Below, piece after piece: positions 2,455 through 26,220 of a DNA stretch of 64,000 bases. The notes beneath the pieces were generated by a model. It saw only the letters and a list, made by a program, of their open reading frames with translations, made no database searches and was not told the DNA's origin. The translations under genes and the position numbers were made by a program. The stretch's first letter is position 1, and every line of letters starts with the position of its first letter. The DNA lies in IMG/VR virus record IMGVR_UViG_3300028400_000005, positions 15,031-79,030 of that record; one strand, 5' to 3'. The stretch comes from a virus.

Positions 2455-5400
2455 CTACCCGAAAAGCGTTCCCTGCTGCGCCGCGGGGTTCGGCGCCGGC
2501 GGGGGCGGGGGCGTTGGATCGTCGTCGTCGTCGCGCTCAGGGCGGGACAGGCCGGCCAGCTGCAGCTGCAGCGCGAGGCCGGTGTCGTCCATGTGTTCGT
2601 ACGGCCCCTGGAAGATCTGCCCCAGGAGGCGCTTGCGCTCGAGGCGTTCCAGGTTGGCGCGGTCGTGGTCGGTGTCCGTCATGAGGGTGTGGATCTCGAT
2701 CGCCTTCTTCTGCCCGAGGCGGTCAATCCGCGCCGAGCGCTGCTCCCACGTCTTGTGCGTCATGGGCAGGTCGTAGTGCACCAGCCACTCGCCGCGGTGC
2801 TGCAGGTTCGCGCCGGTCGCGCCGGCGTCGGAGGCGACGATGATGTCCACCTCGCCGCGGTCGAAGCGCTGGCGGATGCGCGCCTTGTCCTGGGCGCTGT
2901 GCCCCCCGTGCAGGACGGCGACCTTGTGCCCGGCCCGCTCGAGGGCGGCGGCGATCTCGGCCACCGCCTTGCGGTTGTGGGCGAAGACCACGCCGCCCTT
3001 CCCGCGCCGCTGCTCCGCGAGCGAGAGCAGGTGCTGGATCTTGGCGTTGCGGTCGGCGGGGGCCTCGTTGATCACGCGCGCCTTCGCGGCCTCATGCAGC
3101 ACCCCGAGGCTGCGGTTGAGTTTCTGGGCGACCTGCTCGTGCTGGGCCTCGGGGACGCCCTCGAAGCTGCGGGGCGAAAGGGCCCGCAAGGCCTCCAGGT
3201 CCACGTCGCCGCGGTCGCGGGCGCGCACGGCGCGCTGGTAGGCGGCGCGCACCTCTTCCAGCTGCGCCCGCTGCTCCGGGTGCAGCGGGATCGGGGCGTG
3301 CCCGCTGGGGGTGTCGCCGCGGGTGCCGTCCGCGCCCCAGACGACGCGCTTGGTCGTCCCCGAGGGCACCACGTCGTGGTAGACGTAGCGGTCGGCCAGC
3401 CGCTTCAGCGCCTCACGTGCGGTCAGCGCGTCCACGCCGTAGCGGCGCCGGAACTCGGCCGCGTCGCCGAAGCGCTTGGGGTCGAGCTTCTTGAGCCAGT
3501 CGCCGATCTCGGAGGCGTCGTTCTTGACCGGGCTCCCGGTCATCAGGGTGCCGTACGGCGACAGGCTCATCGCGGTGTCGAGCACGGCCGTGAGCAGCGA
3601 CTCCGCCTTGCCCTGGCGGTTCAGGGCGTCGTGGGCCTCGTCCACGGCGACGTAATGCAGGGGGATCCCGTGGGCCTCCAGGGCCTCACGCATGAGGCGC
3701 TGGCGCTCCGGCAGGTCGGCCTCGAGGAAGCGGTCCTTGAACGCCTCGAGGTCCTCCCCGTGGTGCTCCGCCATCAGCTTGAGCATGTCGTCGCGGAAGG
3801 CCTGGTGGGTAACGGCCACCATGTGCACGTCGGGGGTGGCGTAGGCGGCCCGGCGCTCTTCGTGCGTGGCCTCGCGCGCGTGCCAGCGGAAGCGGCCGGG
3901 CTCGAGCACCCGGGCCATCTCCTCGCCGAACTGGTCGCGCACGATCGAGGGCACCACGAACAGGCCCTTCTTGGCCTCGCCGCGGTGGTGGAGCTCGGTG
4001 AAGGCCCCGATCGCCACCGAGGTCTTGCCGCTCCCCGTCCCCAGGAAGGCGGCGAGCTTGCGGCCTTCGATAATGGCCTTTATCGCCCGCTGCTGCTTCA
4101 CGTACTTGGTGCCCTTGCCCATGGTCACGGGGTACATCTGCACCGGGCTCATGCCCGCGTGGACGCTGCCGGCAACCTCCGGCATGAGGGCCGCCAGCCG
4201 CTTCTCGACGGCGGGGGGCAGGGCGTGCCGCTCGAGGTGCGGCACCGGGGCCTCGGGCTCGACCGCCTCGTCGCCGGCGTTGGCGAAGAGGCTGGCCTGC
4301 GCCATGCGCGCGGCGCGCTCTTCCTCCTTCTTCTTGCGCCACGCCTCGAGCAGCGACCCCTTCCCGCCCATGTACGCGAAGCGGCCGCCCTGACGCTCCC
4401 GCAGGCTGTGCTGCTGGCGGGCGATCTCGTCCTTGAAGCGGCGGTACCCCTCGGGGTCGCGCACCGCCCACAGGTGCTCGCCCCAGCGGTTCGCCTCCTT
4501 CGACAGGCGTAGGGGCTGGCCGGTGAGCTTGGCGTGGTAGTGGGCGTAACGGCTCGCCAGCGACCCCCTCATGTGCTCCTGCACCGCCTCGTAGGCGCGC
4601 TGCGGCCCGCCGATGCCCTCCACGAACTTGTTCCACTCGACGAGCTCCGCCTGGTCGCCCAGCGCTTCGGTGGCCACCCGCTGGCGGTCGCGGTGCCACT
4701 TCACCCAGTCCGGGTTCAAGGGGAGGTCGCTCGCCAGCCGGTCGGGGTAGGGGTTGCCCCGCAGGTTGGCCTTGCCGTCCTCGGTGAGGGTCACGCTGCC
4801 GTCGTCGTTTTCCACGTAGTCGCCGCGGCCCAGCCCCATCGCGCGCAAAGTCTCGGCGCGGAGGTCGGGGTCGGCGGCCACATGGTCACGGAACCGCAGC
4901 GTGATGGGGGCGTCGGGGTCTACGGGGGCCGGCTCTCCGAAGAGGCCGCCGTCCTGGGGCGCGCCCCACTTCTCCGGCATGGGGTGCTTGGCCTCGTACT
5001 CGGCCAGGGCCTTGCGCACCGCGTTCTTGCGCGCGGCCAGCTCCTCGGGGCTCTTGCCCAGGATCTCGGTCAGGTAGTAGTGCCGCAGCGCACGCTGGTC
5101 GCGGTGGTCGAGCTCGCCCAGGGGCTTGAGGGCCACCTGCGTGCGCGGATCGGCGAGCACGCTCAGGTAGAGGGCCTTGCGGACCTCCGGGGTGTCGCCC
5201 ACCGTCTGGCCGTAGAAGTCGGCCTCCCCGGGGTGCTCGCGCTCCACGAAGTCACGGGCCAGGCCGCGCAGCCGCTCATGGAGCTCGGGGTGCTTCTCCT
5301 GCAGGCGGTCGTAGTCCACCGGGATCGGTACCCGGTACTCCTCGCCCTTGCGGTTCTTGCGCACCTCCTCGCCCGCCCACGTAGGCAGCAGCTCCTCCAG

Positions 5401-7692
5401 GTGGCGGTCGTACTCCTCCATCTTCTCCGGGGGCACCCAGTCACGGATGAAGCTGCTCGAGGTGAGCAGGCGCTTGACCTCCGCCGGGGTCCACCCGTCG
5501 GCCAGGCGGCTGGCCACGGCCTCCTCCAACCCCGCGCGCACGTCGTCGCGGAAGTTGGGAGCGCGGGCGAGGCGGCGGGCCTTGGGGGGCTCCTGCTGGT
5601 CGAAGGCGCTGGCCGGGTAGCGGGCGAAGCCCGCCGGCAGCCAGTCCTCTTCGTCGTGGCGGCCGGCCTTGATCGCCTTGACCCGCTCGGCGGTCTCGCG
5701 TTCGGCGGGGTCGGCGTCGGGGGTCAGCCGGTCCATGCCCTGCCGGTTGAGCCGCACCCTGAAGCGGTCGTCGTCCCACTCGTAGGTGTAGTCGCCAGGC
5801 TCCAGGCCCAGGGCGCGCAGGGCCGGGATCACGTCGCGGGCGCTCTTGGAGAACTCCAGCTCGAGGTGGTCGGCCGGGGGCTGGCTGAGGGCGAGGTTGA
5901 GCGCCGCGGACGCCTCCAGCTTCCCGAGGGCGGTACCGAGGTGCCGGTGGGCCTCTTCGAGCAGGCGCCGCTTCCGGCGCACCAGGTCCATGACCGCCGC
6001 GGCGTCGGTGGTCGAGGTGATCGCCGGGATCTCGATCGCACGCGCGGCCTCGAGGGCCTTGGTGCCCCGCTCCATCGCCTCCTTGAGCATGGGCTCGAGG
6101 GTGCGGTCGTGGTGTTCGGCCAGGGCCTTGCGGACCTTGTCCAGCTCCTCCTCGCTCAGACCCCGGCGCAGCGCGTGCGCCGTGAGCTTGACCCCCGCGT
6201 CGAGACCCAGGGCATCGAGGGCGAGCCGGTCCAGGGTGTCGCGCCCGAGGACCGCGAGCGCCACGTTGCTCAGGTGGGCGTAGGCCCCGGCGGCGTGGTG
6301 CTTGTACAGGGCCTTGCGCAACTCGCCGTAGCTCCACCCGGGCTCGGCCGCCCGGTTCACGGTGTCCAGGAAGCTGCGGGTCAGGTCTTCCTTCGCCAGG
6401 TCGTCCACCCGGGCCGCGATCTCGCGCGCCAGGTCGGGGTCCACCTCCTCCGTGTGCACGAGCAAGGGGCTGCCGTCTTCACGCGCGTGGGCCTCCTCGA
6501 GGGCGCGCACCTCTTCCTCGCTGGCGTCGGGGTCGTGACCCAGCAGCGCGCGCCGCTTGGCGCGTTGCAGCTTGCGCAGTTGGCGCGCCGCGGCAAGGAA
6601 GGCACGCACGTCCTCGGCGTGCTGGCGCAGCTCCTCCGGCGTGGGGGCCTCCGGCTTGGGGGCGGCCTCCTCGAGGGCGGCGCCCGCCTCCTGCGCGAGG
6701 GGCTGGGCCGCGCGCATGCGCTCCCGGGCGGCGAGCACCCGGGCCTGGACCTCTGGCGCGTACTGCGCGAGCCGCGCCTGGAACGCCTCTTCGGCCTCGC
6801 GCTCGAACTCGTCCTGCGTGAGGCCCCGCTCCTCGGCCAGCTGGCGCATGGAGCCCCCGTAACCGCGGCTGGCCACCGGAGCCGTCTCCGCCCCGGGGAT
6901 CTCGTCGGGTTCGATCTGCCCCCGCTCGCCCAGAACCGCGCTGCGTAGGTCGGGGTCGCGCACCAGGTGCTTGAGGACCTGGCGCTCGATCCGCTTGACG
7001 GCCTGGGTCGCGGCGCGAACGTGGCGCGCGGTGGCCAGGCCGGCGGCCAGGGAGGCCGCGTCGCCCTCGCCGGCCGCCTGCTGCGCGATGGTGCGCAGTT
7101 GCTCACGGGTCTCGTCGTCGAGCATGCGCTCGAGGTGCGGGTTTCCGGTGATCCGGGCGGCCGCGGCGAGCGCGGCCCGGTGCGCGGCCTCGATGTGCTC
7201 CTGCAGCCGCTGGGCCAGCTCCTTGCGCCGCTGGCGCTCCTCGGGGGGCACGTCCGGCTTGGGAGCGCGCTCTTGCTGGCGGCCGCGTCCGATCCGCGTC
7301 AGGCGCAACCCGTGCAAACCCTTGGGCCCCGAGACGACGTGGGCCGATCCGTCGGGGTTGACCTTGATCTTGACGTGGACGTAGTCGGGGTGGTCGGGTC
7401 CGTGGGGCTTCAGCGTGATCCAGCGCTCGTTGGGCCCTAGGTCGCCCCCGTCCGCCTTGTGCACCAGCTCGGCGGGCTCGAGCCAAAACACCAGCGCGAA
7501 GCCGTTTTCGTCGTAAGCCAGGTAGTAGCCCTTGGCCAGCGCACCCTTGGCCCGGGCAATGGCGATCCGTATCGCCTCTCCCTCGTCGTACCCCTCGCGA
7601 AGCAGCGCGTTGGCGATCCGCACCGCCCGGCGCCGCACGGGGGGCGCGAGGTGCTTCATGGCATCGGGAAAGCGTTCTGCGGTCCAGGGCAT
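2455..7692 (-). CDS. Giant SNF2/SF2 helicase-domain protein with N-terminal YdaT-like domain
   Basis: Start reassigned to MPWTAERFPDAMKHL...RIANALLREGYDEGEAIRIA (YdaT-like). Walker A GTGSGKT, VAVDEAH, LMTGSP, SDAGATGANLQ and QRSARIDR helicase motifs. Confidence 0.85.
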   Translation of the reverse strand: MPWTAERFPDAMKHLAPPVRRRAVRIANALLREGYDEGEAIRIAIARAKGALAKGYYLAYDENGFALVFWLEPAELVHKADGGDLGPNERWITLKPHGPDHPDYVHVKIKVNPDGSAHVVSGPKGLHGLRLTRIGRGRQQERAPKPDVPPEERQRRKELAQRLQEHIEAAHRAALAAAARITGNPHLERMLDDETREQLRTIAQQAAGEGDAASLAAGLATARHVRAATQAVKRIERQVLKHLVRDPDLRSAVLGERGQIEPDEIPGAETAPVASRGYGGSMRQLAEERGLTQDEFEREAEEAFQARLAQYAPEVQARVLAARERMRAAQPLAQEAGAALEEAAPKPEAPTPEELRQHAEDVRAFLAAARQLRKLQRAKRRALLGHDPDASEEEVRALEEAHAREDGSPLLVHTEEVDPDLAREIAARVDDLAKEDLTRSFLDTVNRAAEPGWSYGELRKALYKHHAAGAYAHLSNVALAVLGRDTLDRLALDALGLDAGVKLTAHALRRGLSEEELDKVRKALAEHHDRTLEPMLKEAMERGTKALEAARAIEIPAITSTTDAAAVMDLVRRKRRLLEEAHRHLGTALGKLEASAALNLALSQPPADHLELEFSKSARDVIPALRALGLEPGDYTYEWDDDRFRVRLNRQGMDRLTPDADPAERETAERVKAIKAGRHDEEDWLPAGFARYPASAFDQQEPPKARRLARAPNFRDDVRAGLEEAVASRLADGWTPAEVKRLLTSSSFIRDWVPPEKMEEYDRHLEELLPTWAGEEVRKNRKGEEYRVPIPVDYDRLQEKHPELHERLRGLARDFVEREHPGEADFYGQTVGDTPEVRKALYLSVLADPRTQVALKPLGELDHRDQRALRHYYLTEILGKSPEELAARKNAVRKALAEYEAKHPMPEKWGAPQDGGLFGEPAPVDPDAPITLRFRDHVAADPDLRAETLRAMGLGRGDYVENDDGSVTLTEDGKANLRGNPYPDRLASDLPLNPDWVKWHRDRQRVATEALGDQAELVEWNKFVEGIGGPQRAYEAVQEHMRGSLASRYAHYHAKLTGQPLRLSKEANRWGEHLWAVRDPEGYRRFKDEIARQQHSLRERQGGRFAYMGGKGSLLEAWRKKKEEERAARMAQASLFANAGDEAVEPEAPVPHLERHALPPAVEKRLAALMPEVAGSVHAGMSPVQMYPVTMGKGTKYVKQQRAIKAIIEGRKLAAFLGTGSGKTSVAIGAFTELHHRGEAKKGLFVVPSIVRDQFGEEMARVLEPGRFRWHAREATHEERRAAYATPDVHMVAVTHQAFRDDMLKLMAEHHGEDLEAFKDRFLEADLPERQRLMREALEAHGIPLHYVAVDEAHDALNRQGKAESLLTAVLDTAMSLSPYGTLMTGSPVKNDASEIGDWLKKLDPKRFGDAAEFRRRYGVDALTAREALKRLADRYVYHDVVPSGTTKRVVWGADGTRGDTPSGHAPIPLHPEQRAQLEEVRAAYQRAVRARDRGDVDLEALRALSPRSFEGVPEAQHEQVAQKLNRSLGVLHEAAKARVINEAPADRNAKIQHLLSLAEQRRGKGGVVFAHNRKAVAEIAAALERAGHKVAVLHGGHSAQDKARIRQRFDRGEVDIIVASDAGATGANLQHRGEWLVHYDLPMTHKTWEQRSARIDRLGQKKAIEIHTLMTDTDHDRANLERLERKRLLGQIFQGPYEHMDDTGLALQLQLAGLSRPERDDDDDPTPPPPPAPNPAAQQGTLFG

Positions 7693-7751
7693 CGCCCCCA
7701 CCGTAGCGGCGGGGGCGGTTGGGGTGCGGGCCCGGTCGGGGCGTCGTCGCG

Positions 7752-8516
7752 CTACGGCTGCCCAGCCAGCAGCGAGGCCCAGAAGTCCGCGATCGGGATG
7801 CGCCGGGTGACCCGGCCCGAGCCGTCGCACACGTGGCACTTCACCTCTTCGGGCTCGGGCTGGTCGTAGCCGTGCTCGGACCAGAACCTACGTACGAGCT
7901 CGTTCACCTGCTCCACGGTGAGCCCGTGACGCTCCTTTGGGGGGTGGGCGGCGTAGAAGGCCTCCCACAGGGGATGCGCGACGATCCCCTGCCCCCGGCA
8001 CTCGTCGCACCTGGACTTGGTGACGACGTGGGTGACGGTGCCGCCGTAGGCGTCCTCGACCGCGCCCTTGACGGCTCGGACCGCGTCGTGCACGTCGCAG
8101 GCGTCTTCGTCGCGCGCTTGTCGCTCGAGCTCGGCCAGGGTCAGCCCATGCCGGCGCGCGAGCCAGTTGGCGAGTTTGCGGGGCATGGGGTTCCGGGTTT
8201 TTTCCGGGTCCACGAGCCCCGGGAGGTCGTCGAGGTCATAGGCGCCGAAAAAGTCCTCAAGCGGCTCGTTGAAGCTGGTCTCGCAACCGTACCCCACCTG
8301 GAGGTTCCAATCCACGAGCTCAGCGCAGCGGCCGCAGATCTTGTACGTGCTCCACTTGTGGCCGTCCTCGTCCAGAACGTCGTGGCGGTAGTAGGTGGCC
8401 TTCGGGGGAATCACGCCGCCGCACGAGCTGCACGTATGCTGCCGGCGCGCCTTCAGGCGCTGTTCCTTGTGGAGCCGTACGTCGCAGTTATCCGTGTAGA
8501 CCGTCACAGTAGCCAT
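7752..8516 (-). CDS. Cys-rich zinc-binding hypothetical protein
   Basis: CxxC pairs (CSSC, CGRC) plus DnaJ-like CDECRGQG and CHVCDGSG motifs. Confidence 0.65.
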   Translation of the reverse strand: MATVTVYTDNCDVRLHKEQRLKARRQHTCSSCGGVIPPKATYYRHDVLDEDGHKWSTYKICGRCAELVDWNLQVGYGCETSFNEPLEDFFGAYDLDDLPGLVDPEKTRNPMPRKLANWLARRHGLTLAELERQARDEDACDVHDAVRAVKGAVEDAYGGTVTHVVTKSRCDECRGQGIVAHPLWEAFYAAHPPKERHGLTVEQVNELVRRFWSEHGYDQPEPEEVKCHVCDGSGRVTRRIPIADFWASLLAGQP

Positions 8517-8530
8517 CCGTGCCCCCCCCT

Positions 8531-8896
8531 TCACGCCAGCGGCCGCCTCGGATCGCGCCCCCCGGCCGATTCGGCCAGCGCCTCCGCCATCATCCCGGCG
8601 GTTTTCAGCAGCATCGAGGCGAACCGCAGCGCCTTAACCCGCGTCTCATCGCACGGGTCGTCACCCCCGAGCTCGTCCGCGGCGTCCAAGAACGCTGCGG
8701 AGGCGCGCGTGTAGGCTTCGGCCGCCCCGCGCATGAAGATCTCCAGCGTGCCAAGGTGGTCGCCCAGAACAACGCCGGCGGGCACGAGCTCAGCGGCCAC
8801 GTCCACCAGCTTCTCGGCGACCTCCTGCTCCATGCCACCGTGCTTGAGAATGTTGACGAGCGACGCCTTGCTTGCGCTCCCCTGTTCGGTCGTCAC
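8531..8896 (-). CDS. Hypothetical protein
   Basis: Helical ORF coupled (GTGA overlap) to the upstream gene. Confidence 0.6.
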   Translation of the reverse strand: MTTEQGSASKASLVNILKHGGMEQEVAEKLVDVAAELVPAGVVLGDHLGTLEIFMRGAAEAYTRASAAFLDAADELGGDDPCDETRVKALRFASMLLKTAGMMAEALAESAGGRDPRRPLA

Positions 8897-9906
8897 GCCA
8901 CCACCTCCTCAGCCTCCGGGTACTCCTCGTACAGCCGCCCGTCCAGTTCCCGGCCGGCCGCCCTGCGACCGACGCGCGACATGACGACCGGGCGGTCGAG
9001 GTCGGCCGTCCCCCCGAGCTCCACCGGGACAACCTGACCGTCCACGTCGAGCAGGAAGGGCGTCCGCGAGGGTGCCTCCCCCGGGGCGAACTCGCCCCAT
9101 TGCTTGAAGAAGAAGGCGGCGCCGTACCGGTGCGCCTGGGTGCGCAGGGACCGCACCCAGGCCGGATGCATGGGGCGCGCGCCGCGGCCGGTCTCGCCCC
9201 CCACGATCACCCAGCTCACCCGTCCCGGGAGCTGCTGGCCCGGGCGGTCCAGTCGCTCCCCGGTCAGCACGTTGTACAGACCGCCCCCGTCCCGGTCGTC
9301 GGCCTGCACGTGGTCCAGCCACAGGCTGCCCAGCAACGGCTCGGCGCTGACGAACCGCACGAGCGGCACCGGGCTGCGGATGCTGGCCAGGTCGAGGGCC
9401 CGCTGCGCGAACTCCTGCCGCCCCACCGACACGCCGAACCAGATTGAGGCGGCCCCAATCGGCGCGACGCGGTGCTCCAGGAACTCGTCGAACCAGGTCT
9501 CCAGGATGTCCCGCATGCGCCTGGACCGCTTGGTCAGCACCATGAAGCGGTGCGGCTTCTGACCGGCGTGGACGCGGTTCGCGTTAACCTGCTCCATAGT
9601 GTTCAGGATCCGCAGGATGGTGCGCGCGGGCAGGTCCTCATGGAAGAGGTCGCCCATCGAGCAGCAAAACACGGCCCGGGGCGCGCGCCACCGCGCGGGG
9701 ACGCTCAGGCGGTCCTCCAGGAACTGCACTTCGGTAAACGGGCGGCCGTACTGCGCCGGGGCCCCCCTCCACTCCCCCCGCTTCCAGGCGCGGTGCCGCT
9801 TCGTATGCAGGCGCTCGGCGTAGCAATGCTTGCACTCGGTGCTGACCTTGGTGCAGCCCACCACGGGGTTCCAGGTCTCCTCCGCCCATTCGATCTTCGT
9901 TGGCAT
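8893..9906 (-). CDS. DUF5131 / phage Gp37-Gp68 family protein (radical-SAM-like)
   Basis: TKIEWAEETWNPVVGCTKVSTECKHCYA, SMGDLFH, LTKR, RFVSAEPLLG, WVIVGGETG, FFFKQWGE signature. Confidence 0.9.
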   Translation of the reverse strand: MPTKIEWAEETWNPVVGCTKVSTECKHCYAERLHTKRHRAWKRGEWRGAPAQYGRPFTEVQFLEDRLSVPARWRAPRAVFCCSMGDLFHEDLPARTILRILNTMEQVNANRVHAGQKPHRFMVLTKRSRRMRDILETWFDEFLEHRVAPIGAASIWFGVSVGRQEFAQRALDLASIRSPVPLVRFVSAEPLLGSLWLDHVQADDRDGGGLYNVLTGERLDRPGQQLPGRVSWVIVGGETGRGARPMHPAWVRSLRTQAHRYGAAFFFKQWGEFAPGEAPSRTPFLLDVDGQVVPVELGGTADLDRPVVMSRVGRRAAGRELDGRLYEEYPEAEEVVA

Positions 9907-9918
9907 GATGCCCCCCTT

Positions 9919-10173
9919 CTACCTTTCCGTCAGCGGGACCAACGCCGTGACCTTCCGGGTTTCGTAGTCCACGTGTACGAAGTCGAGGGCGCTGAAGTGT
10001 TCCCGCACCACCTGCGCGATCCGGTCGAGAACGTCGGCCGTCGAGGCGTCGAACATGACCTGCTCGTCGTGCTCGTCCACGAGCGTGGGCACGTTCGTCA
10101 CGATGAGGACGGGACCGCCGTCGGGCAGCTGCCACGCGTGCACCGTGCGCTCCTCGCGCAGGCTAGCGTGCAT
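9919..10173 (-). CDS. Small hypothetical protein
   Basis: In-operon ORF starting MHASLREE. Confidence 0.5.
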   Translation of the reverse strand: MHASLREERTVHAWQLPDGGPVLIVTNVPTLVDEHDEQVMFDASTADVLDRIAQVVREHFSALDFVHVDYETRKVTALVPLTER

Positions 10174-10405
10174 CGCCCTGACCTCCCTCACCCGCCTCGG
10201 GAAACAGCTCCACCGTCACCACCGCGCGCATTCCGACGGCGAGCTCCCGCACCGCGCCTTCGTCCGTGGGGATGGTGGCGATCACGCGGTCGTGTTCGTC
10301 GGTCAGCACGAGCTCGGGGTCGCCGTTGCACCCCTCGATGACCTCGGACAGGCGCGCGGGGATGACGTACGTGGTCGGGGTCGGTTTAGTCTTGGTCCTG
10401 GTCAC
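10163..10405 (-). CDS. Small hypothetical protein
   Basis: GTG start at 10405 preceded by GGAGGAG RBS. Confidence 0.55.
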   Translation of the reverse strand: MTRTKTKPTPTTYVIPARLSEVIEGCNGDPELVLTDEHDRVIATIPTDEGAVRELAVGMRAVVTVELFPEAGEGGQGDAR

Positions 10406-10679
10406 GCTGCTCCTCCTCCCGCTGCATGGCGACCCGCAGGCTGCGCAGGGCCGTCTCGGTCGCGCGCATCTGGCCGTAGGTGTCCGCGGCCAGCTCGCGC
10501 GCCACCGTGAGGGCTGACTGCACCTCCGGGCCCCGGGTTCCTTCCGTGGCCGCATCGGCGACCCGGATCGCGTCGAGCGCGCGCTCGATCGCTTCCTTAC
10601 CGCGCGTGCGCAGCTCCTCCTCGGCCCGCAGCAGCATGCGGTGCGCGTCGGTGAAGCTGGTCGGTTCGTGCTTGGTCAT
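10386..10679 (-). CDS. Coiled-coil hypothetical protein
   Basis: ATG 10679 (MTKHEPTSF) preceded by AGGAGG RBS. Confidence 0.6.
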   Translation of the reverse strand: MTKHEPTSFTDAHRMLLRAEEELRTRGKEAIERALDAIRVADAATEGTRGPEVQSALTVARELAADTYGQMRATETALRSLRVAMQREEEQRDQDQD

Positions 10680-19784: not shown

Positions 19785-20792
19785 ATGGGCAGCCTCCACG
19801 ACGGCCGAATCAAAAACTTCTGGTGGGGACCCAACGCCCTGGTAGACGACGGGCATCTCGAGCGCATGGGTCCCCACGCCGTTTCGGTGTACGTGGCGCT
19901 GCTGCGCTACTCGGACAACGACCGCCGCTCGTGGCCCAAGGTCGAAACCCTGGAGCGCCTGACCGGCATCTCTCGCGCCCAGGTCTACCGCGCGCTCGCG
20001 CGCCTCGAAGAGCTGGGCTACGTATCCCGCGAGCGTGACGGCCGGCGCAACGTCTACCATCTGCTGCAGCTCCCCACGGCATCCCCCGCCGACCCGCCCG
20101 TGAAACAGGTCTCAGGCAGAGACGTTTCCAGCGAAAAGGTCTCAGAGGGAGACCCTTCGGGGGAAAGGGTCTCAGACAGAGACAAAAAGGGTCTCAGACA
20201 GAGACGTGTAAGGTCTCAGACAGAGACGTATGGTGACACCGAGAGCGCGCGTCCTGGACGGGAAAAACTCCCCCAAAATGCAGGCCGAAGAAAACAAATA
20301 GAAAAAGACCTAGGGAAGAAAACAACACAAGAAGAAGAAGAAGAAGAAGCGGCCGCTCACGAAAATCTCAGAAAGGAACCGCCCCCCTACGCCTCGGTGT
20401 TCGCCACCCCGGCCGCGATGAAGGACGCGGTGTTGCATGCGGCGCTGCGCGGTGCCCCCGAGCGCCGCATCCGTATGCTGGCGGACCTCGTCGAGGCTGG
20501 GGTGTGGGAAAAGTTGCGCGCGCTCGCGCGCGAAAACCGCCGCGGCGCGCGCGCGTGGCACGACTGGCTCGATCAGCTGTCGCGGCAGCTCGAGGGCCGG
20601 CCGGACGGCCTCGAGCGGCTGCGCCAGGCTCTCGAGGCGCTTACCCCGGACATCGAACGCCCCTTTGCGTGGGTGACGCGGTTCCTGAGCACCGAGGCCC
20701 CGACGCCGGCGCCTAAGCGGGCGCCGGCGCGGAACGCAGGCGTAGGCGACGGCGTGGAAGTGGACATGCGCGGTGTGTACATGGAGGACTGA
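19785..20792 (+). CDS. Replication initiator (N-terminal wHTH, lambda O-like organisation)
   Basis: AVSVYVALLRY...SWPKVETLERLTGISRAQVYRALARLEELGYV; internal iterons; followed by a DnaC-like ATPase. Confidence 0.85.
   Translation: MGSLHDGRIKNFWWGPNALVDDGHLERMGPHAVSVYVALLRYSDNDRRSWPKVETLERLTGISRAQVYRALARLEELGYVSRERDGRRNVYHLLQLPTASPADPPVKQVSGRDVSSEKVSEGDPSGERVSDRDKKGLRQRRVRSQTETYGDTESARPGREKLPQNAGRRKQIEKDLGKKTTQEEEEEEAAAHENLRKEPPPYASVFATPAAMKDAVLHAALRGAPERRIRMLADLVEAGVWEKLRALARENRRGARAWHDWLDQLSRQLEGRPDGLERLRQALEALTPDIERPFAWVTRFLSTEAPTPAPKRAPARNAGVGDGVEVDMRGVYMED
20108..20227 (+). repeat. Five iterons GGTCTCAGACAGAGAC (putative replication origin)
   Basis: Copies start at 20108, 20138, 20168, 20190 and 20212; each is the palindrome GTCTC-N5-GAGAC; an A-rich tract follows at about 20285-20350. 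Confidence 0.85.
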
Positions 20793-20793
20793 C

Positions 20794-21585
20794 ATGGGCG
20801 ACGCCCCGGAGAAGGATCAGGAGAACCCCTTTCTGGCGCTGGTCGAGGAAATCCGCTCGAAGAACCCGCCGGCGGCGCGGGTCGAGTCCGACCACGAGTG
20901 CTTCGACGGGATGGTCGAGGACGACAAGGGCCGCTGGGTGCCGTGCCCGGTGTGCAAGGCGCGGCGCGACGAAGCCATGCTGCGCATGCGCCTCCAGTCG
21001 TCGGGGATCGCGGAGCGCTACCTCGACGTGGGCTGGGACGACCTCGAGATGCTGCCGCCCTTCCCGCTGGTGCGAAGCGTGGCCGAGCGCATCGGCGACC
21101 TGATCCACGCCGGCGAGTCCGCGGTGTTTACGGGGCCGGTGGGGACGGGCAAGACCCAGGCCGGGCTGCTCCTGGTGCGGGCTGCGGTGCGCGCCGGGTT
21201 CGAGGCGCGGGTCGTCAACGTCGGCTGGCTGGGGGTTGAGGTGCGCTCCACCTGGAACGGCGGTGAGGGCATCACGGAAAACGAGGCCGTGCGCCTCATG
21301 GCTCAGCCCGACCTGCTGCTGCTCGACGACGTGGGGGCCGGCGAAACCCGCAACGCCGAGCTCGAGCGCCGCCTCCTCTACCTCGCCCTCGAGGCGCGGA
21401 ACCAGAACCGGCGCCCGACGATCATCACGACCAACCTCGGGGTTGGGTCAAAATCGGCCTCGCGCGCCACATTGGAGCAGTACCTTGGAGGGCGGATATG
21501 GGACCGCCTCAAGCCGCTCCGGGTGGTGGCCTTCAAGCACGGGAAAAACTTCAGGGAGCGGGAGATTAGCGTATGGGCAAACTGA
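20794..21585 (+). CDS. DnaC/IstB-like AAA+ helicase loader
   Basis: VPCPVC, SGIAERY, GPVGTGKT, LLLLDDVG, PTIITTN, RIWDRL. Confidence 0.9.
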   Translation: MGDAPEKDQENPFLALVEEIRSKNPPAARVESDHECFDGMVEDDKGRWVPCPVCKARRDEAMLRMRLQSSGIAERYLDVGWDDLEMLPPFPLVRSVAERIGDLIHAGESAVFTGPVGTGKTQAGLLLVRAAVRAGFEARVVNVGWLGVEVRSTWNGGEGITENEAVRLMAQPDLLLLDDVGAGETRNAELERRLLYLALEARNQNRRPTIITTNLGVGSKSASRATLEQYLGGRIWDRLKPLRVVAFKHGKNFREREISVWAN

Positions 21586-23003
21586 GCTATGACGACCTGG
21601 TCGATCCGGCCCGCTGGGACGTGGTGGGCTACGAGATCGGCTTGGATGACCTGGGCGAGTTTGAACCCGACGACATCGTGCGCAGCCGTCGCGCTCAGCT
21701 GCTGATGCGTCAGGAACGTTATGAAGAAGCGCTCCTCGAGCTCGACCGCGTAGAGGGACCTCCGGGATCGGGGTTGCGCCGGCTGGCGCGGCTGGGCCTT
21801 GGGCTCTACGAGCGGGTGCTGCAATCCGAACCCACGCCCGCGGAAACCCTGAACCCCATCGAGCTCGAGGAGCAGTTCTACTTCGCCTTTGCCCGGGCGG
21901 GTGCGGCCAGCCAGCTCGGCAAGCTGGACCTGGCGCTGCAGCACAACGCCGTGGCGGAGTTCATCGCCCGCACCCTGCGCATGGAGCGCCGTCTCCACGT
22001 CGTTCATGCGGACATCCTGCGCATTCGCAACCTGATGGGCGACCCCCAGCCCGAGGAAATGGCCGGACTCTACGCGATCATGGGGCGCTGGAACCGGCGC
22101 CTGAGCCTGTGGGGGCGGCGCACCCTCGTGGAGATGCACCTGGCGCGCGGGGACTACACCAGGGCGCACCGTGACGCTCGGGGCGATTCGGCCCTCGAGG
22201 CGTTCACCGGCATGCTGGCCTGCGACGGAACCGCGCGCCCCAGCAACGGCGATCACGGGGCCATCGCCAACATCGCGCAAAGCGTTCTGGGCGGCCACTA
22301 CCTGCCCGATGACGTTGCCTCGCAGCCGTACAGCGACTACGCCCGGGTGATCCGCGCCTACGGGCTGCTGCGCCGGGGGCATCCGACGGCCGCCATGCGC
22401 CACCTGGGACCCAAGCCCCCGGGCTTCCCCGACCAGCGCGTCTACTGGGGCGGGGTCGCGCTGCTGGCGCTGGCGCACGCCGGCAGCAGCGGACTTCCCC
22501 CGTTCGACCCCCTGTCCATCGCGGACGTAGTGCACGAGGGCGTGGCGAGGATGATCTCCACCGACGGAGTGGTGTGCGTGATGCGGCGGTACATGCCCGA
22601 CGCCCTGGCCGCCCTGGCCGTGCATCCCGAGACCCACCCGCACCTGGCCGGCGGGCTGGCCGAAGTACCCCTGCTGGTCGGTGGGTGGGTGGAATACCGC
22701 GGCGACCGCGTCAAGGTCCCCCCCACCCTTGGCGAGGCTGCGATCTTGCGCGCGCTGGGCGTGTCCAACGGCCGCCTGCCTACGGTCCACGCCGCCCAGG
22801 AGTCACGCTACCGGTCGTACCTTGGGCGGATGGGGCTGTCCCCGGACGAAGTCGTGAACGTGGGCGTGCTCTACCGCCTAGCGCGCACCATGGAGGGCAT
22901 CGCCAACGGCGACAACGTGCGAAGCGCCCGCGCGTGGCGGCGCGTCGCCGAAGAGCTGGCCTCCAAGGCCCCGGTCTTGCAGTCCTACGACACCGGGCAC
23001 TAA
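21573..23003 (+). CDS. TPR-like helical regulator, candidate peptide receptor
   Basis: TPR-like segments (RAQLLMRQERYEEALLELD; ARAGAASQLGKLDLALQH; LVEMHLARGDYTRA; RAYGLLRRGHPTAAMRHL); directly followed by a signal-peptide micro-ORF. Confidence 0.65.
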   Translation: MGKLSYDDLVDPARWDVVGYEIGLDDLGEFEPDDIVRSRRAQLLMRQERYEEALLELDRVEGPPGSGLRRLARLGLGLYERVLQSEPTPAETLNPIELEEQFYFAFARAGAASQLGKLDLALQHNAVAEFIARTLRMERRLHVVHADILRIRNLMGDPQPEEMAGLYAIMGRWNRRLSLWGRRTLVEMHLARGDYTRAHRDARGDSALEAFTGMLACDGTARPSNGDHGAIANIAQSVLGGHYLPDDVASQPYSDYARVIRAYGLLRRGHPTAAMRHLGPKPPGFPDQRVYWGGVALLALAHAGSSGLPPFDPLSIADVVHEGVARMISTDGVVCVMRRYMPDALAALAVHPETHPHLAGGLAEVPLLVGGWVEYRGDRVKVPPTLGEAAILRALGVSNGRLPTVHAAQESRYRSYLGRMGLSPDEVVNVGVLYRLARTMEGIANGDNVRSARAWRRVAEELASKAPVLQSYDTGH

Positions 23004-23012
23004 GGTGCAGGC

Positions 23013-23111
23013 ATGAAAAAGTACAGAAAGTACCTCCCCGCGCTTTTGGTCCTCGGAATCCTGCTTTGGGCCGCCATCGCCAACGCTGACCCCTGTCCGG
23101 GTTGCGTGTAG
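23013..23111 (+). CDS. 32-aa secreted propeptide MKKYRKYLPALLVLGILLWAAIANA|DPCPGCV
   Basis: Read by hand (below ORF-track cutoff). Basic n-region, hydrophobic h-region, A-N-A signal peptidase I site, 7-aa tail. TAAGGT -10 box sits 6 nt before the ATG. Confidence 0.75.
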   Translation: MKKYRKYLPALLVLGILLWAAIANADPCPGCV

Positions 23112-23182
23112 CGCCTCTGGGTGTTAGTCGAGTGTTACCAAAAGCCACCCATTCCCGGTAAGGGGCGCGGTAAAATCCGAAC

Positions 23183-23374
23183 ATGGCATTGACTATGAAA
23201 ACACCCACTCAGCAGGAGGCCCGAAACCGGCTCATCAAGGCCACGGAGGGCGACCTGGACAGCGAAATCGCCGCGTTTTCGATCATCGCCAAAGCCAACG
23301 AAATCGGCCAGCTGCTCCAGCAGCTGGCCCCCGAGGCGCGCGAGACCGCGCGCGAGCTTCTAAGAGCCTTGTAG
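23183..23374 (+). CDS. Small helical protein (candidate effector/antirepressor)
   Basis: Leaderless TAAAAT-N6-ATG; no good -35 but an inverted repeat just upstream. Confidence 0.6.
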   Translation: MALTMKTPTQQEARNRLIKATEGDLDSEIAAFSIIAKANEIGQLLQQLAPEARETARELLRAL

Positions 23375-23785
23375 CGTCTTCTGGCCCTTCGGGGCCGCAC
23401 GCAAGGCCCGATCCAGGGCCGTGAGGATCACGCTGTTCTGCGTGATCTTTTCTTTGCGGGACTGGTTCAGCCGCTCCACCGTGTCGTGGAGGACCCGGAC
23501 CAGCTCCACGGGCAGCCGTTGGCTGCGCACCGGGTCGTACGGACGCGGGTTACGCCAGTACCGGGGCAGCGCGTCCGGGCGGCGCCGCGCCTCCCGCAGG
23601 AAGGCGGCGAGCGCGCGCTCAACGTAGCCCTGGATCGTGAGCCCTTCGGCCATGGCCGCGATCTTCAGCTCCTGGTACATGTCGTCCGGCATTTTGTAGG
23701 ACACGATCCGCCGCAACTGCTGTTTCGGGCCGACCGGCTTCGCGCTGTGCTCCATCAGCCCCTCGTACTGGTGTTTGTTGGGCAT
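23360..23785 (-). CDS. Tandem ribbon-helix-helix protein, probable ParA adaptor (ParG-like)
   Basis: VSYKMPDDMYQELKIAA....TIQGYVERAL and SQRLPVELVRVL...ITQNSVILTAL; directly after parA; AGGAGG RBS. Confidence 0.7.
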   Translation of the reverse strand: MPNKHQYEGLMEHSAKPVGPKQQLRRIVSYKMPDDMYQELKIAAMAEGLTIQGYVERALAAFLREARRRPDALPRYWRNPRPYDPVRSQRLPVELVRVLHDTVERLNQSRKEKITQNSVILTALDRALRAAPKGQKTLQGS

Positions 23786-23796
23786 GGCTCCTCCTG

Positions 23797-24594
23797 TTAG
23801 CGGCTGGGCACCAGCTCGGCCCGTTCCGCGACCCAGTCCCCCAGCGCCATGTAGTCAATCGCGCCCGGGGACCGGGGCTTGTACTCGAAGATGGTCAGCC
23901 CGCGCTCCGGCGCTTCGGCGAGGTGGACGTTGCGCCGGATGTGACCGGCGTAGGTGGGCCCGTAGGCCTCCTGCAGGTCGGGCACGAGGTTGCGGGACAG
24001 ACGTTCGCGTCGGTCGATCATCGTGGCCAGCACGCCCATCAGCGCCGGCGCGTAACCGAGGCGGTCGCGCATGGCGCGCAGGCGCGTTCGCAGCCCCTCC
24101 ACCCCGGCCCGGGTGGCCGCACCGGGGGCCACGGGCACGATGACGGCGTCGGCCGCGTAGAGGGCGAGCAGGCTGGCCAGGTTGACGGTGGGGCCCACGT
24201 CTATGATCACGAGCTGGTAGCGGTCGCTGACCTCCTTAAGCCGCTCGGCCAGGATCATGTGCCGGTCTTCGCGGCCGGCGATCTCGAGCTCGGCTTGGGC
24301 GATGCGGGGGTTGTTGGGGATGAGGTCGAGCCCGTCGCGCACGTTCAGGGTGATGAGCTCGTCGGCGGGGCGGTAGGTCGGGTCGAGCGGGTCCGAAAAC
24401 ACCAGCATCTCGTACATCCCCGCGCGGTCCTCCCCCTCCGTGGTGAACCCCAGGAACATGCCCGCCTGCCCCTGCGAGTCCATGTCCACGAGCAGCACCT
24501 TGCCTACGCGGTCGGCCAGGTAGGCCGCAAGGTTGACCGCGGTGGTGGTCTTCCCCACCCCGCCCTTTTCAGCAGCGATAGCCAGGACCATCAT
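23797..24594 (-). CDS. parA: ParA/Soj partition ATPase (type Ib)
   Basis: EKGGVGKTT deviant Walker A, LLVDMDSQG, IIDVGP, IRRNVHLAEAP. Confidence 0.95.
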   Translation of the reverse strand: MMVLAIAAEKGGVGKTTTAVNLAAYLADRVGKVLLVDMDSQGQAGMFLGFTTEGEDRAGMYEMLVFSDPLDPTYRPADELITLNVRDGLDLIPNNPRIAQAELEIAGREDRHMILAERLKEVSDRYQLVIIDVGPTVNLASLLALYAADAVIVPVAPGAATRAGVEGLRTRLRAMRDRLGYAPALMGVLATMIDRRERLSRNLVPDLQEAYGPTYAGHIRRNVHLAEAPERGLTIFEYKPRSPGAIDYMALGDWVAERAELVPSR

Positions 24595-25232
24595 GACACC
24601 CGCTTAGGCCGCACCCACGTCACCACACCAATCACCTTGTCGCTCGGCTTGGGCGGCGGGGCCTCTTCGTCGTCGTACACGTAGCCGCCCTTGGTGGCCC
24701 ACACGGCCTCGAGGCCGCTACCCAGCCGCTCGAGCACCACGAGGTCGCCCTCTTCGATCCGCTCGGTCGCCCGCACCCCCACCGGCTCGTTGAGCGGCAG
24801 ACAGGCGATCCTGCCCGACGTGGGAACGAAGAGCAGGTCGCAGGGCAGCGCCGGCTCCTCGCGCCGCGCGGCGGGGCCCTGGGCGGACTCCCCCTCGAGG
24901 TAGACGGGCACCGTCACGGCGACCTTGGCCGCCGGTTCGCCGTTGGCGGGCGCCACCACGGCGAGCCCGGTCTCCTCCACGAACCCCTGGTAGTCCCCGT
25001 CCCACAGGAGGGCGACCAGGGTACGCAGCCGGGCCGGCGAGAGGGTGCGCACGGCTACGTCGGGCTGCGTGATCAGCGTATGCAGCGTCGGGCGCGACAC
25101 GCGCTCGTAGATACCGGGTTCGCGCTCGGCCAGGTCCTGGCTAAGCGCGTCCACGTCCCGCAGGCTCAGCTTGCGGGCCTTCATCCGCTGGTGTATCGCG
25201 TCCGAAAGAGACTTGGTTTTGACTGCTCCCAC
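24591..25232 (-). CDS. CI-like repressor (XRE HTH plus degenerate S24-like C-domain)
   Basis: RKLSLRDV...VSRPTLHTL HTH; C-terminal EGDLVV...KVIGVVTWV; divergent from a Cro-like gene. Confidence 0.7.
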   Translation of the reverse strand: MGAVKTKSLSDAIHQRMKARKLSLRDVDALSQDLAEREPGIYERVSRPTLHTLITQPDVAVRTLSPARLRTLVALLWDGDYQGFVEETGLAVVAPANGEPAAKVAVTVPVYLEGESAQGPAARREEPALPCDLLFVPTSGRIACLPLNEPVGVRATERIEEGDLVVLERLGSGLEAVWATKGGYVYDDEEAPPPKPSDKVIGVVTWVRPKRVS

Positions 25233-25282: not shown

Positions 25283-25366
25283 ATTGTAGTCCAGAATATT
25301 GGATAACGCAAATGGACAGACAGCACGGCTGGCCAGCTTGCCCCCTTGTCCGTCTGTCTGTAAAAT
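25283..25366. promoter_or_regulatory. Divergent CI/Cro promoters with GACAGAC operator-like boxes
   Basis: Leftward TTGCGT-N17-TACAAT; rightward TTGCCC-N17-TAAAAT-N7-ATG; GGACAGACAG at 25314 and inverted TGTCCGTCTGTCTG at 25347. Confidence 0.7.
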
Positions 25367-25373
25367 GAGACAC

Positions 25374-25577
25374 ATGGAGACGATCCGCCTCAGCGAAATC
25401 CACACGCGCCTGAGCGAGCTGTCCGGCGAGCAGATCCTCGAGCTCGCTCGCCGAACCGGCATCGGCCGCTCGACCCTGTACCAGTACCGCGCCAGCCCGG
25501 AGGCGCTGAAGCGGGCTCGAGGCTCCACCCTGCTGGCCATCCAGAGGGCCCTGGATGAGGTGCGCGATGCTGCCTAG
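25374..25577 (+). CDS. Cro-like HTH protein
   Basis: ILELARRTGIGRSTLYQY HTH; leaderless start at 25374. Confidence 0.75.
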   Translation: METIRLSEIHTRLSELSGEQILELARRTGIGRSTLYQYRASPEALKRARGSTLLAIQRALDEVRDAA

Positions 25578-26220
25578 GGACCTGGACCCGTGGGGCGAGT
25601 GGCGCAACCCGGGCCTGAACCCCGACGTGGCCGAGTTCCTGGTGACCCACCGACCCACCTACGCGCAGTCGGTGGGTTTCATCCGAGCGGAGCGGCCGCG
25701 CGAGAACAATCATGAGGCCACCGCGTGGTGGAGCACCACCCCTGCCCGCGCGCACCTCATCAACGCGCTGCTGCGCCGGGGCGATCGCACCGTCGAGGCG
25801 GTCGAGCGGGAGCTGGGCATCCCCTCGTCCAAGATTTACTACTACCTGCGCGAGTTCCGCATGGCCTTCCAGCCCCGTCCGGGCTCGTCGGTGGTCATCA
25901 TCGGCTACAGGGGCGAGTTCTACGAGGGGTGGGTGCTCAAGGACTACGGGAACGGCCGGGCGCGCCTGGTCGTGCCCGAGCACGGGGCGGTGGTCGAGGG
26001 CGAATGGAGCCGCACCAACCAGGCGTTCCGTTTGTCGCAGCCGTTACCGCGCACGGTGCCGCTTCGTGCCGCGGCGGAAAGCATGGGCGTCAAGGACTCC
26101 ACGCTGCGCAAAGCCCTCAAGGCGCTGGGGGTGCCGGTCTACCAGCGGGCCCCTGTGCCGCTGCTCCAGCGCATGCTGCCTGAGCGAGCCCGCTACCTGG
26201 GAGGGCTATGGGGGAGCTAA
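25567..26220 (+). CDS. HTH-containing regulator
   Basis: TVEAVERELGIPSSKIYYY and LRAAAESMGVKDSTLRKAL HTH-like motifs. Confidence 0.6.
   Translation: MLPRDLDPWGEWRNPGLNPDVAEFLVTHRPTYAQSVGFIRAERPRENNHEATAWWSTTPARAHLINALLRRGDRTVEAVERELGIPSSKIYYYLREFRMAFQPRPGSSVVIIGYRGEFYEGWVLKDYGNGRARLVVPEHGAVVEGEWSRTNQAFRLSQPLPRTVPLRAAAESMGVKDSTLRKALKALGVPVYQRAPVPLLQRMLPERARYLGGLWGS

Follow-up and report, generated by a model that had tools for sequence, protein, structure and literature searches.

The locus considered here lies in a 64,000-nucleotide stretch of DNA (referred to as the window) from the IMG/VR virus record IMGVR_UViG_3300028400_000005, and consists of three closely spaced open reading frames (ORFs) on the plus strand that together resemble a peptide-receptor signalling cassette. 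The first (21573-23003) encodes a candidate cytoplasmic peptide receptor of 476 residues. It is followed by a candidate propeptide micro-ORF (23013-23111), the 32-residue product of which ends in DPCPGCV, and by an ORF for a helical protein of 63 residues (23183-23374), the candidate output gene. An earlier note, made from the letters of the DNA alone, had described the three ORFs, with a gap of 9 nt between the receptor stop codon and the micro-ORF, as a candidate cassette of the RRNPP/arbitrium type; all three and the gap are present as described. A Shine-Dalgarno-like AAGGTG, read from the sequence at 23002-23007 (plus strand), overlaps the stop codon of the receptor gene and lies 5 nt before the ATG of the micro-ORF. 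The start of the receptor gene overlaps the end of a DnaC-like gene by 13 nt.

In the micro-ORF product a basic n-region (KKYRK) precedes a hydrophobic core and an A-N-A↓D site, cleavage at which would leave DPCPGCV. The signal-peptide-like part comprises residues 1-25 (23013-23087, plus strand) and ends in A-N-A, the predicted mature heptapeptide is encoded by 23088-23108, and the stop codon occupies 23109-23111 on the same strand. Signal peptides were called throughout by a heuristic that requires a K/R start, an 11-residue window with a mean hydropathy of at least 2.0, and agreement with the -3/-1 rule; by this measure the proposed signal peptide, with a site that would release seven residues, has the expected features. 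The G+C content at third codon positions exceeds that at second positions (0.75 vs 0.44), as it does in the neighbouring genes. When the stop-to-stop frames of at least 25 residues in the 5.4-Mb assembly were surveyed, one frame in 82,508 combined a signal-like start with a PCxxC end followed by 0-2 residues, and this frame was the micro-ORF itself. Neither Pfam nor NCBIfam gave a match to the micro-ORF, and its best PHROG match (E=0.036) was not significant.

The pair of receptor and micro-ORF recurs elsewhere. Five loci were compared: the window, a plasmid of Deinococcus sp. KNUC1210 (NZ_CP092193.1; L006), plasmid unnamed8 of Deinococcus sp. QL22 (NZ_CP097156.1; L007), the D. aquaticus plasmid pDATS02 (L008) and an IMG/VR provirus that encodes a D. 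cavernae protein (L009). The receptors of the other four are 24-27% identical to that of the window by alignment (25.5% and 25.6% by tblastn). In each of these four the receptor gene is succeeded by an ORF of the same orientation, which starts anywhere from a 7-nt overlap to 32 nt past the stop codon; one of the four is annotated. The products end in DPCLGC (L006), DPCPWCRP (L007), GPCGGC (L008) and DPCLGCYL (L009), so that P-C-x-x-C plus 0-2 residues forms a constant C-terminus in all five loci. The remainder is variable, both in its Pro/Val-rich pro-region and in total length (window 32, L009 36, L007 48, L006 49 and L008 81 residues). The heuristic signal features (K/R n-region, 11-residue hydrophobic window and -3/-1 sites) are present in five of five micro-ORFs, and in each the G+C content of third codon positions again exceeds that of second positions. 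Because a single frame of the assembly has both the signal-like start and the PCxxC end, chance is excluded as the source of the 5/5 pairing. The lack of such a neighbour beside homologues had been named beforehand as a possible refutation; instead, every locus has an adjacent signal-peptide micro-ORF with a related tail. The two-gene module is almost certainly real and conserved. Four family members used as queries against the plasmid database all led to the same three Deinococcus plasmids, and scans of viral contigs with the family gave one locus, L009. Further loci were not found in genome contigs (queried with the D. ruber and D. peraridilitoris proteins) or in metagenome contigs, and tblastn against phages gave no match to the receptor.

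The tails of four of the five products (window, L006, L007 and L009) begin with Asp-Pro, and in the window (ANA↓DP) and L009 (AAA↓DP) this pair is preceded by A-x-A. Of all peptide bonds Asp-Pro is the most labile to heat and acid, and a non-enzymatic release of the PCxxC peptides in hot habitats is conceivable.

Two readings would give the micro-ORF a role other than that of a ligand gene. In the first the genes are conserved neighbours, the micro-ORF being a 'moron' for an uncleaved signal-anchor with an external CxxC that serves in metal binding, thiol-redox chemistry or a superinfection block, while the tetratricopeptide repeat (TPR) protein acts independently. In its favour, CxxC motifs are classically associated with redox chemistry and metals, the relatives have long, Pro-rich pro-regions, TPR proteins can have partners of many sorts, and both cleavage and re-import of the peptide are predicted steps. 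Strict same-strand adjacency in five of five loci, despite receptor identities of 24-27%, nevertheless argues against this reading, and the constancy of the C-terminal PCxxC alone, with a variable length and pro-region, is the pattern of a processed C-terminal pheromone. Taken with the predicted complex described below, these points make such a moron improbable. In the second reading the micro-ORF encodes a RiPP-like precursor (ribosomally synthesised and post-translationally modified peptide) or a small lysis protein (spanin-like, or a lipoprotein), and the TPR protein is its recognition or maturation scaffold. The peptide is indeed short and contains cysteines, and the L008 product is Pro-rich like o-spanins, but the N-terminus is of the Sec type and not a RiPP leader, the first Cys lies away from the cleavage site, and no lipobox is present; nor is a gene for a modifying enzyme, holin, endolysin or i-spanin adjacent in the five loci. 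This scaffold reading is extremely unlikely, and as identities for the micro-ORF both the lipoprotein/spanin (no lipobox, no lysis genes nearby) and the RiPP (a Sec signal at the N-terminus, no modifying enzymes) were rejected.

The receptor belongs to a family of 67 representative clusters, collected by an exhaustive HMMER search, which match the query at 23-33% identity, mostly over the greater part of their length. Its members are mostly 440-520 residues long (full range 272-608), and those with a named source are all from Deinococcus (D. ruber, D. peraridilitoris, D. cavernae, D. rufus and D. sp. QL22), where they are recorded as hypothetical or 'TPR' proteins. The receptor of the window has no significant Pfam, NCBIfam or PHROG family; by itself it gives TPR_1 at E=0.041, which falls short of the Pfam cut-offs, and a detector relying on hidden Markov models only would miss it. 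When 69 family members were scanned with Pfam, TPR_2 was found in six of them and other TPR families in one to three members each, together with three stray matches that each concern a single member. The family profile does match consensus TPR proteins in a profile search of the PDB (E=2.9e-7), the matches being to designed or generic TPRs only.

A model of the receptor built by AlphaFold2 with the family alignment has a mean predicted local distance difference test score (pLDDT) of 93.2 and a predicted template modelling score (pTM) of 0.90; the model made from the single sequence (pLDDT 39.6) is unusable. The N-terminal 30 residues form short helices that carry a conserved P12/D16 motif. A TPR-like α-solenoid with a concave groove extends over residues ~1-365, as expected from the claim of a TPR-like receptor, and residues ~366-476 (~110 residues) form a C-terminal domain, composed of a β-hairpin and helices, that has no assigned fold. 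Searches with Foldseek against the PDB and BFVD gave generic TPR matches or matches with low template modelling scores only. RapI and a phage Rap are among the top structural rows, and superposition onto structures of the NprR/PlcR type gives a root mean squared deviation of 8.7 Å, with scores level with those of generic TPR proteins. Comparison of the C-terminal domain with the OmpR-type winged helix-turn-helix by hhalign gave a probability of 0.8%, and its Atlas look-alikes (YTH3_C, Trans_reg_C and BTAD) score 0.75-0.79, which is within the noise of the tool. No helix-turn-helix (HTH) or enzymatic domain was found by Pfam in any of the 69 members, which bears out the earlier note in its view that an N-terminal XRE-type HTH is absent and that the family is a distinct one. 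None of the RRNPP(A) receptor families appeared among the matches of the 69 members that would indicate membership by descent. As judged from these comparisons, the receptor family is new and not detectably homologous to the receptors of Bacillota.

The receptor (with its alignment) was co-folded with the whole 32-residue precursor, which gave an interface score (ipSAE) of 0.66, compared with 0.33 for the best of three controls. In calibration, 58 of 80 solved complexes and 2 of 110 mismatched pairs reached that mark. Three runs had at least 78% of their contacts in common, with a partner pLDDT of at least 54. The contacts of lowest error link the CPGCV end of the peptide (residues 28-32) to receptor residues 42-48, 71-75, 102-107, 140-147 and 176-180, which in the co-fold model line the concave face of successive repeats. 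This prediction agrees with the check suggested by the earlier note, in that the C-terminal heptapeptide region is placed in the concave groove above controls. The contacted positions are more conserved than other positions of the solenoid (mean entropy 2.34 vs 2.76, Mann-Whitney p=5e-4) and include the two most conserved side chains of the family, R140 (97%) and Y256 (95%), together with E/D147 and R150. Receptor positions 42-50, 71-75 and 143 are highly variable across the family. Constant anchors for the core of the peptide combined with variable positions for its x-x and tail residues is the pattern that a specific peptide receptor should have, as far as the model can be followed. That the conserved tail is set on invariant groove residues, with a score above controls, also argues against an independent TPR protein beside a moron.

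Downstream of the micro-ORF the DNA contains an operator-like direct repeat, GTGTTA-N5-GTGTTA, with a period of 11 bp (23121-23138, plus strand), which starts 10 nt past the stop codon. This is the sole match in the window, where 0.15 would be expected even if one mismatch is allowed. Repeats of the TGTTAC type with the same period are found in the same place in L007 (7359-7375) and L009 (3375-3391), and L008 has GTGAT three times, at 2217, 2228 and 2250, with spacings of 11 and 22 bp (0.01 expected). Direct repeats phased at 11 bp are thus present 10-25 nt past the peptide gene in four of the five loci. In the window and L009 an ORF of 63 to 65 residues has its ATG 45-62 nt beyond the repeat, the distance in the window being 45-61 nt, and in L007 an ORF of 66 residues begins 57-73 nt beyond it.

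Small ORFs occupy this same position in three of the five loci (63 residues in the window, 66 in L007 and 65 in L009), and their products are weakly similar to one another (BLASTP E=0.013). The ORF of the window is probably a real gene, because homologues that are 98% and 75% identical, and likewise 63 residues long, are called in other assemblies. It has no Pfam match, and its NCBIfam (DegQ, E=0.14) and PHROG (E=0.2) matches are not significant. A -10-like TAAAAT was read from the sequence at 23171-23176 (plus strand), 6 nt before the ATG and with no recognisable -35; a scan for consensus promoters did not call it. This element could be an activator-dependent promoter that gives a leaderless or near-leaderless mRNA, and we infer that the promoter of the small ORF is of the activator type and controlled through the repeat. 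A search for RNA runs that contain this DNA listed none.

The arrangement was compared with the RRNPP signature, which comprises the five criteria of Bernard et al. 2023 (PMC10075063). All five features are found here, the Sec signal by the heuristic in place of SignalP: the propeptides fall within 10-100 residues (32-81 here), the receptor within about 250-500 (476), the receptor contains TPRs, and receptor and propeptide genes are direct neighbours. The likeness to arbitrium lies in the order of the genes, an all-helical TPR solenoid receptor of about 400-480 residues, a putative Sec-exported propeptide with a C-terminal signal, a short ORF behind an operator-like repeat, and a position on a temperate phage beside maintenance and regulatory genes. 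The differences are as marked. There is no sequence homology to arbitrium (no Pfam, NCBIfam or PHROG match here), the receptor lacks an N-terminal XRE-type HTH and has an extra C-terminal domain of ~110 residues, the signal is P-C-x-x-C with two invariant cysteines whereas AimP yields a linear xxxxG(G/A) hexapeptide, the direct repeats have a period of 11 bp and are not the AimR operator, and the host phylum is Deinococcota rather than Bacillota. According to a 2026 review, arbitrium-like loci are all in Bacillales and other Gram-positives (PMC13389391).

The Rap-Phr systems (RapI, phi105 Rap) are similar in that a TPR receptor without a DNA-binding domain is followed by a small gene for a Sec-exported peptide; the Phr signal consists of the C-terminal 5-6 residues, and these systems are frequent on mobile elements. 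They differ from the present pair in peptide chemistry, which is CxxC here, and in the N-terminal three-helix-bundle effector domain, which is not recognised here, and no homology between the two is detectable. With NprR-NprX and PlcR-PapR the pair shares the five-criterion signature and a peptide that sits (here by prediction) in a concave TPR groove, but it has no HTH, comes from a different phylum and shows no sequence relationship. Searching the literature for Deinococcus together with RRNPP or arbitrium gave nothing relevant, and no paper describing the system was found.

On this evidence the cassette is read, with a probability of roughly 60%, as an RRNPP/arbitrium-like peptide-receptor signalling pair of a temperate, myovirus-like phage-plasmid from a Deinococcus-Thermus host. 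The propeptide would be exported, and in the phage of the window a cut by signal peptidase at A-N-A↓D would free DPCPGCV directly; in the relatives the Pro/Val-rich pro-region of 15-50 residues would need extra trimming, as for Phr and AimP. The peptide would build up outside carrier or infected cells and be re-imported, presumably via an oligopeptide permease. Its C-terminal tail would then bind the concave groove of the TPR solenoid, where the conserved R140, E/D147, R150 and Y256 could hold the invariant core and the carboxylate, and the variable groove residues 42-50, 71-75 and 143 could recognise the x-x and tail residues, which vary from element to element. Binding would switch the output of the receptor, most likely at the promoter of the small ORF by way of the 11-bp-phased repeat and the C-terminal domain; alternatively the receptor may be Rap-like and act on another protein. 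With either output the density of carriers would bias the choice between lytic growth and plasmid-like lysogeny. That the module specifically governs lysis-lysogeny is a tentative proposal, with the odds somewhat below even.

The Cys pair of the peptide may close a disulfide outside the cell. An extension of the signalling model, and a distinctly unlikely one, is that the peptide is a redox-gated signal, disulfide-closed and stable outside and then reduced or re-oxidised as oxidative or radiation stress in the recipient dictates, and that the receptor integrates carrier density with redox damage of the host into the decision on lysis-lysogeny or maintenance, through a new DNA-binding C-terminal domain acting on the 11-bp-phased repeats. 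Such a system, if it exists, would represent an analogue of arbitrium that evolved independently in a phylum of diderm extremophiles.

Several points weigh against a signalling pair with a transcriptional output. Five loci are a small basis for comparison, and the repeat pattern was derived from these same loci, so that its significance is partly circular. L006 is without a repeat of the GTTA type and has another instead (TCGTCCA, 31 bp apart), and the output is not uniform, since the small ORF is there replaced by a gene (7435-10416) for a 993-residue AAA/STAND-like ATPase with TPR-like repeats; this ATPase may be an alternative output of the same receptor-peptide pair. The receptor family has no recognised DNA-binding domain, and the repressor role of the 213-residue protein encoded nearby (see below) is a putative one, the label coming from inference. 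The interface of the co-fold is made in part by the signal peptide (precursor residues 10-23), which the mature ligand would lack. Conservation of a concave TPR face is common irrespective of the ligand. Part of the co-fold score may reflect remembered modes of TPR-peptide binding, because RRNPP-peptide complexes have been solved and none for this receptor family. Finally, the model assumes that a Cys-containing peptide can be exported and re-imported across the outer membrane and thick envelope of Deinococcota.

Upstream of the receptor gene lie genes for a replication initiator (19785-20792, plus strand; Pfam HTH_36, PHROG replication initiation at E=3.3e-19) and a DnaC-like helicase loader (20773-21585, plus strand; Pfam IstB_IS21, PHROG E=7.5e-34), and both may be co-transcribed with it. 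Downstream, on the minus strand, are genes for an Arc/ribbon-helix-helix-like protein (23360-23785; PHROG Arc-like, E=1.8e-4), ParA (23797-24594; PHROG E=7.9e-53, Pfam AAA_31 E=2.9e-37) and the putative repressor of 213 residues (24591-25232), which has no Pfam or PHROG family match. Beyond these, two divergent HTH genes for proteins of 92 residues (Cro-like HTH) and 221 residues occupy 25299-26220 on the plus strand (Pfam HTH_7 E=2.1e-5, HTH_26 E=5.8e-4) and are presumed to be the other arm of a switch. The earlier note had set the cassette between replication genes and a par/CI/Cro switch. The initiator, the loader and the par gene hold up; 'CI' is a tentative label for a protein with no family match, and the switch label derives from gene order and the HTH matches. 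The 213-residue protein also has no significant similarity to the proteins of 198 and 250 residues at the same position in L007 and L009, and if these are indeed repressors, those of the elements must be very diverse.

This neighbourhood bears on a further alternative, that the module is genuinely one of signalling but controls, in place of the lysis-lysogeny choice, plasmid-type functions such as replication and copy number, partition or the exclusion of related elements, with the receptor acting on a protein in the manner of Rap. Rap-Phr on Bacillus plasmids and integrative and conjugative elements is a precedent, the receptor gene overlaps and follows the initiator and loader genes and faces the ParA operon, and three homologues reside on large Deinococcus plasmids; the absence of an HTH from all 69 members and the rank of RapI and phage Rap among the structural matches fit too. 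The modules of L007, L008 and L009, however, adjoin a divergent pair of HTH genes and not rep/par, the phased repeats with a small ORF downstream suggest a transcriptional output, and the unassigned C-terminal domain could bind DNA. Control of a plasmid function is considered unlikely on balance.

The 63-residue ORF and the Arc/ribbon-helix-helix-like gene overlap convergently by 15 nt (23360-23374). Transcripts of the small ORF would extend into the par/repressor operon and could disturb its expression.

Portal, MuF-like and tail-sheath genes are found elsewhere in the window. With the plasmid-like par and rep genes they agree with the proposed phage-plasmid of Deinococcus-Thermus type, and the element combines the genes of a tailed phage with replication and partition genes of plasmid type. 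Where a source is named, the relatives of the tail sheath come from Thermus brevis (66% identity), Deinococcus sp. PEB2-67 (47%) and a D. geothermalis plasmid (39%), and many further relatives are on contigs of 67-96 kb. The assembly that holds the phage contig is assigned to a different, large phylum. The 79-kb contig (C386 of G000) is the longest in a bin of 702 contigs and correlates least well of all with the remaining contigs in tetranucleotide composition (0.952 vs a median of 0.992), and the receptor family was found neither in 60 relatives nor in 400 sampled genomes of the phylum assigned to the assembly. Because of this absence from the 400 genomes, the low correlation and the Thermus and Deinococcus relatives, the contig was probably assigned to the wrong bin or is part of a mobile element from a different host, the host itself probably being a member of Deinococcota.

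Descriptions of phage peptide communication and of cytoplasmic TPR peptide receptors have so far been confined to Bacillota and the mobile elements of that phylum (PMC10075063, PMC9765709, PMC13389391). If the signalling model is correct, a non-homologous receptor-propeptide family fixed beside the regulatory genes of Deinococcus/Thermus-type phage-plasmids would show that the strategy arose or spread well beyond Gram-positive hosts, and would add a new peptide chemistry (CxxC). It would offer a first handle on cell-cell and phage-phage signalling in a radiation- and heat-resistant phylum, and orthogonal peptide/receptor pairs for engineering. The idea is directly testable, because cultured strains carry members of the family: D. 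aquaticus PB-314 (pDATS02), Deinococcus sp. QL22, Deinococcus sp. KNUC1210 and D. cavernae.

The whole cassette is also covered by a sister contig that comes from another hydrothermal-vent study and differs by 68 substitutions and a single 3-nt deletion over 2.5 kb (21400-23900). Its receptor is 99% identical in protein while the DNA differs by ~2.7%, and most of the listed changes are at third codon positions, which indicates that the receptor is under purifying selection between the sister phages, as far as these two sequences allow. The 3-nt deletion is in frame, at 22772, and drops one residue of the C-terminal domain (NGRLP to NGLP).

The QL22 record NZ_CP097156.1 contains the receptor gene twice with identical scores (3323-4765 and 97739-99181; L007/L010/L013). 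The copies are separated by 94,416 bp, close to half the length of the 188,830-bp record, and the record resembles either a head-to-tail dimer of a ~94-kb element or an assembly in which that element was duplicated.

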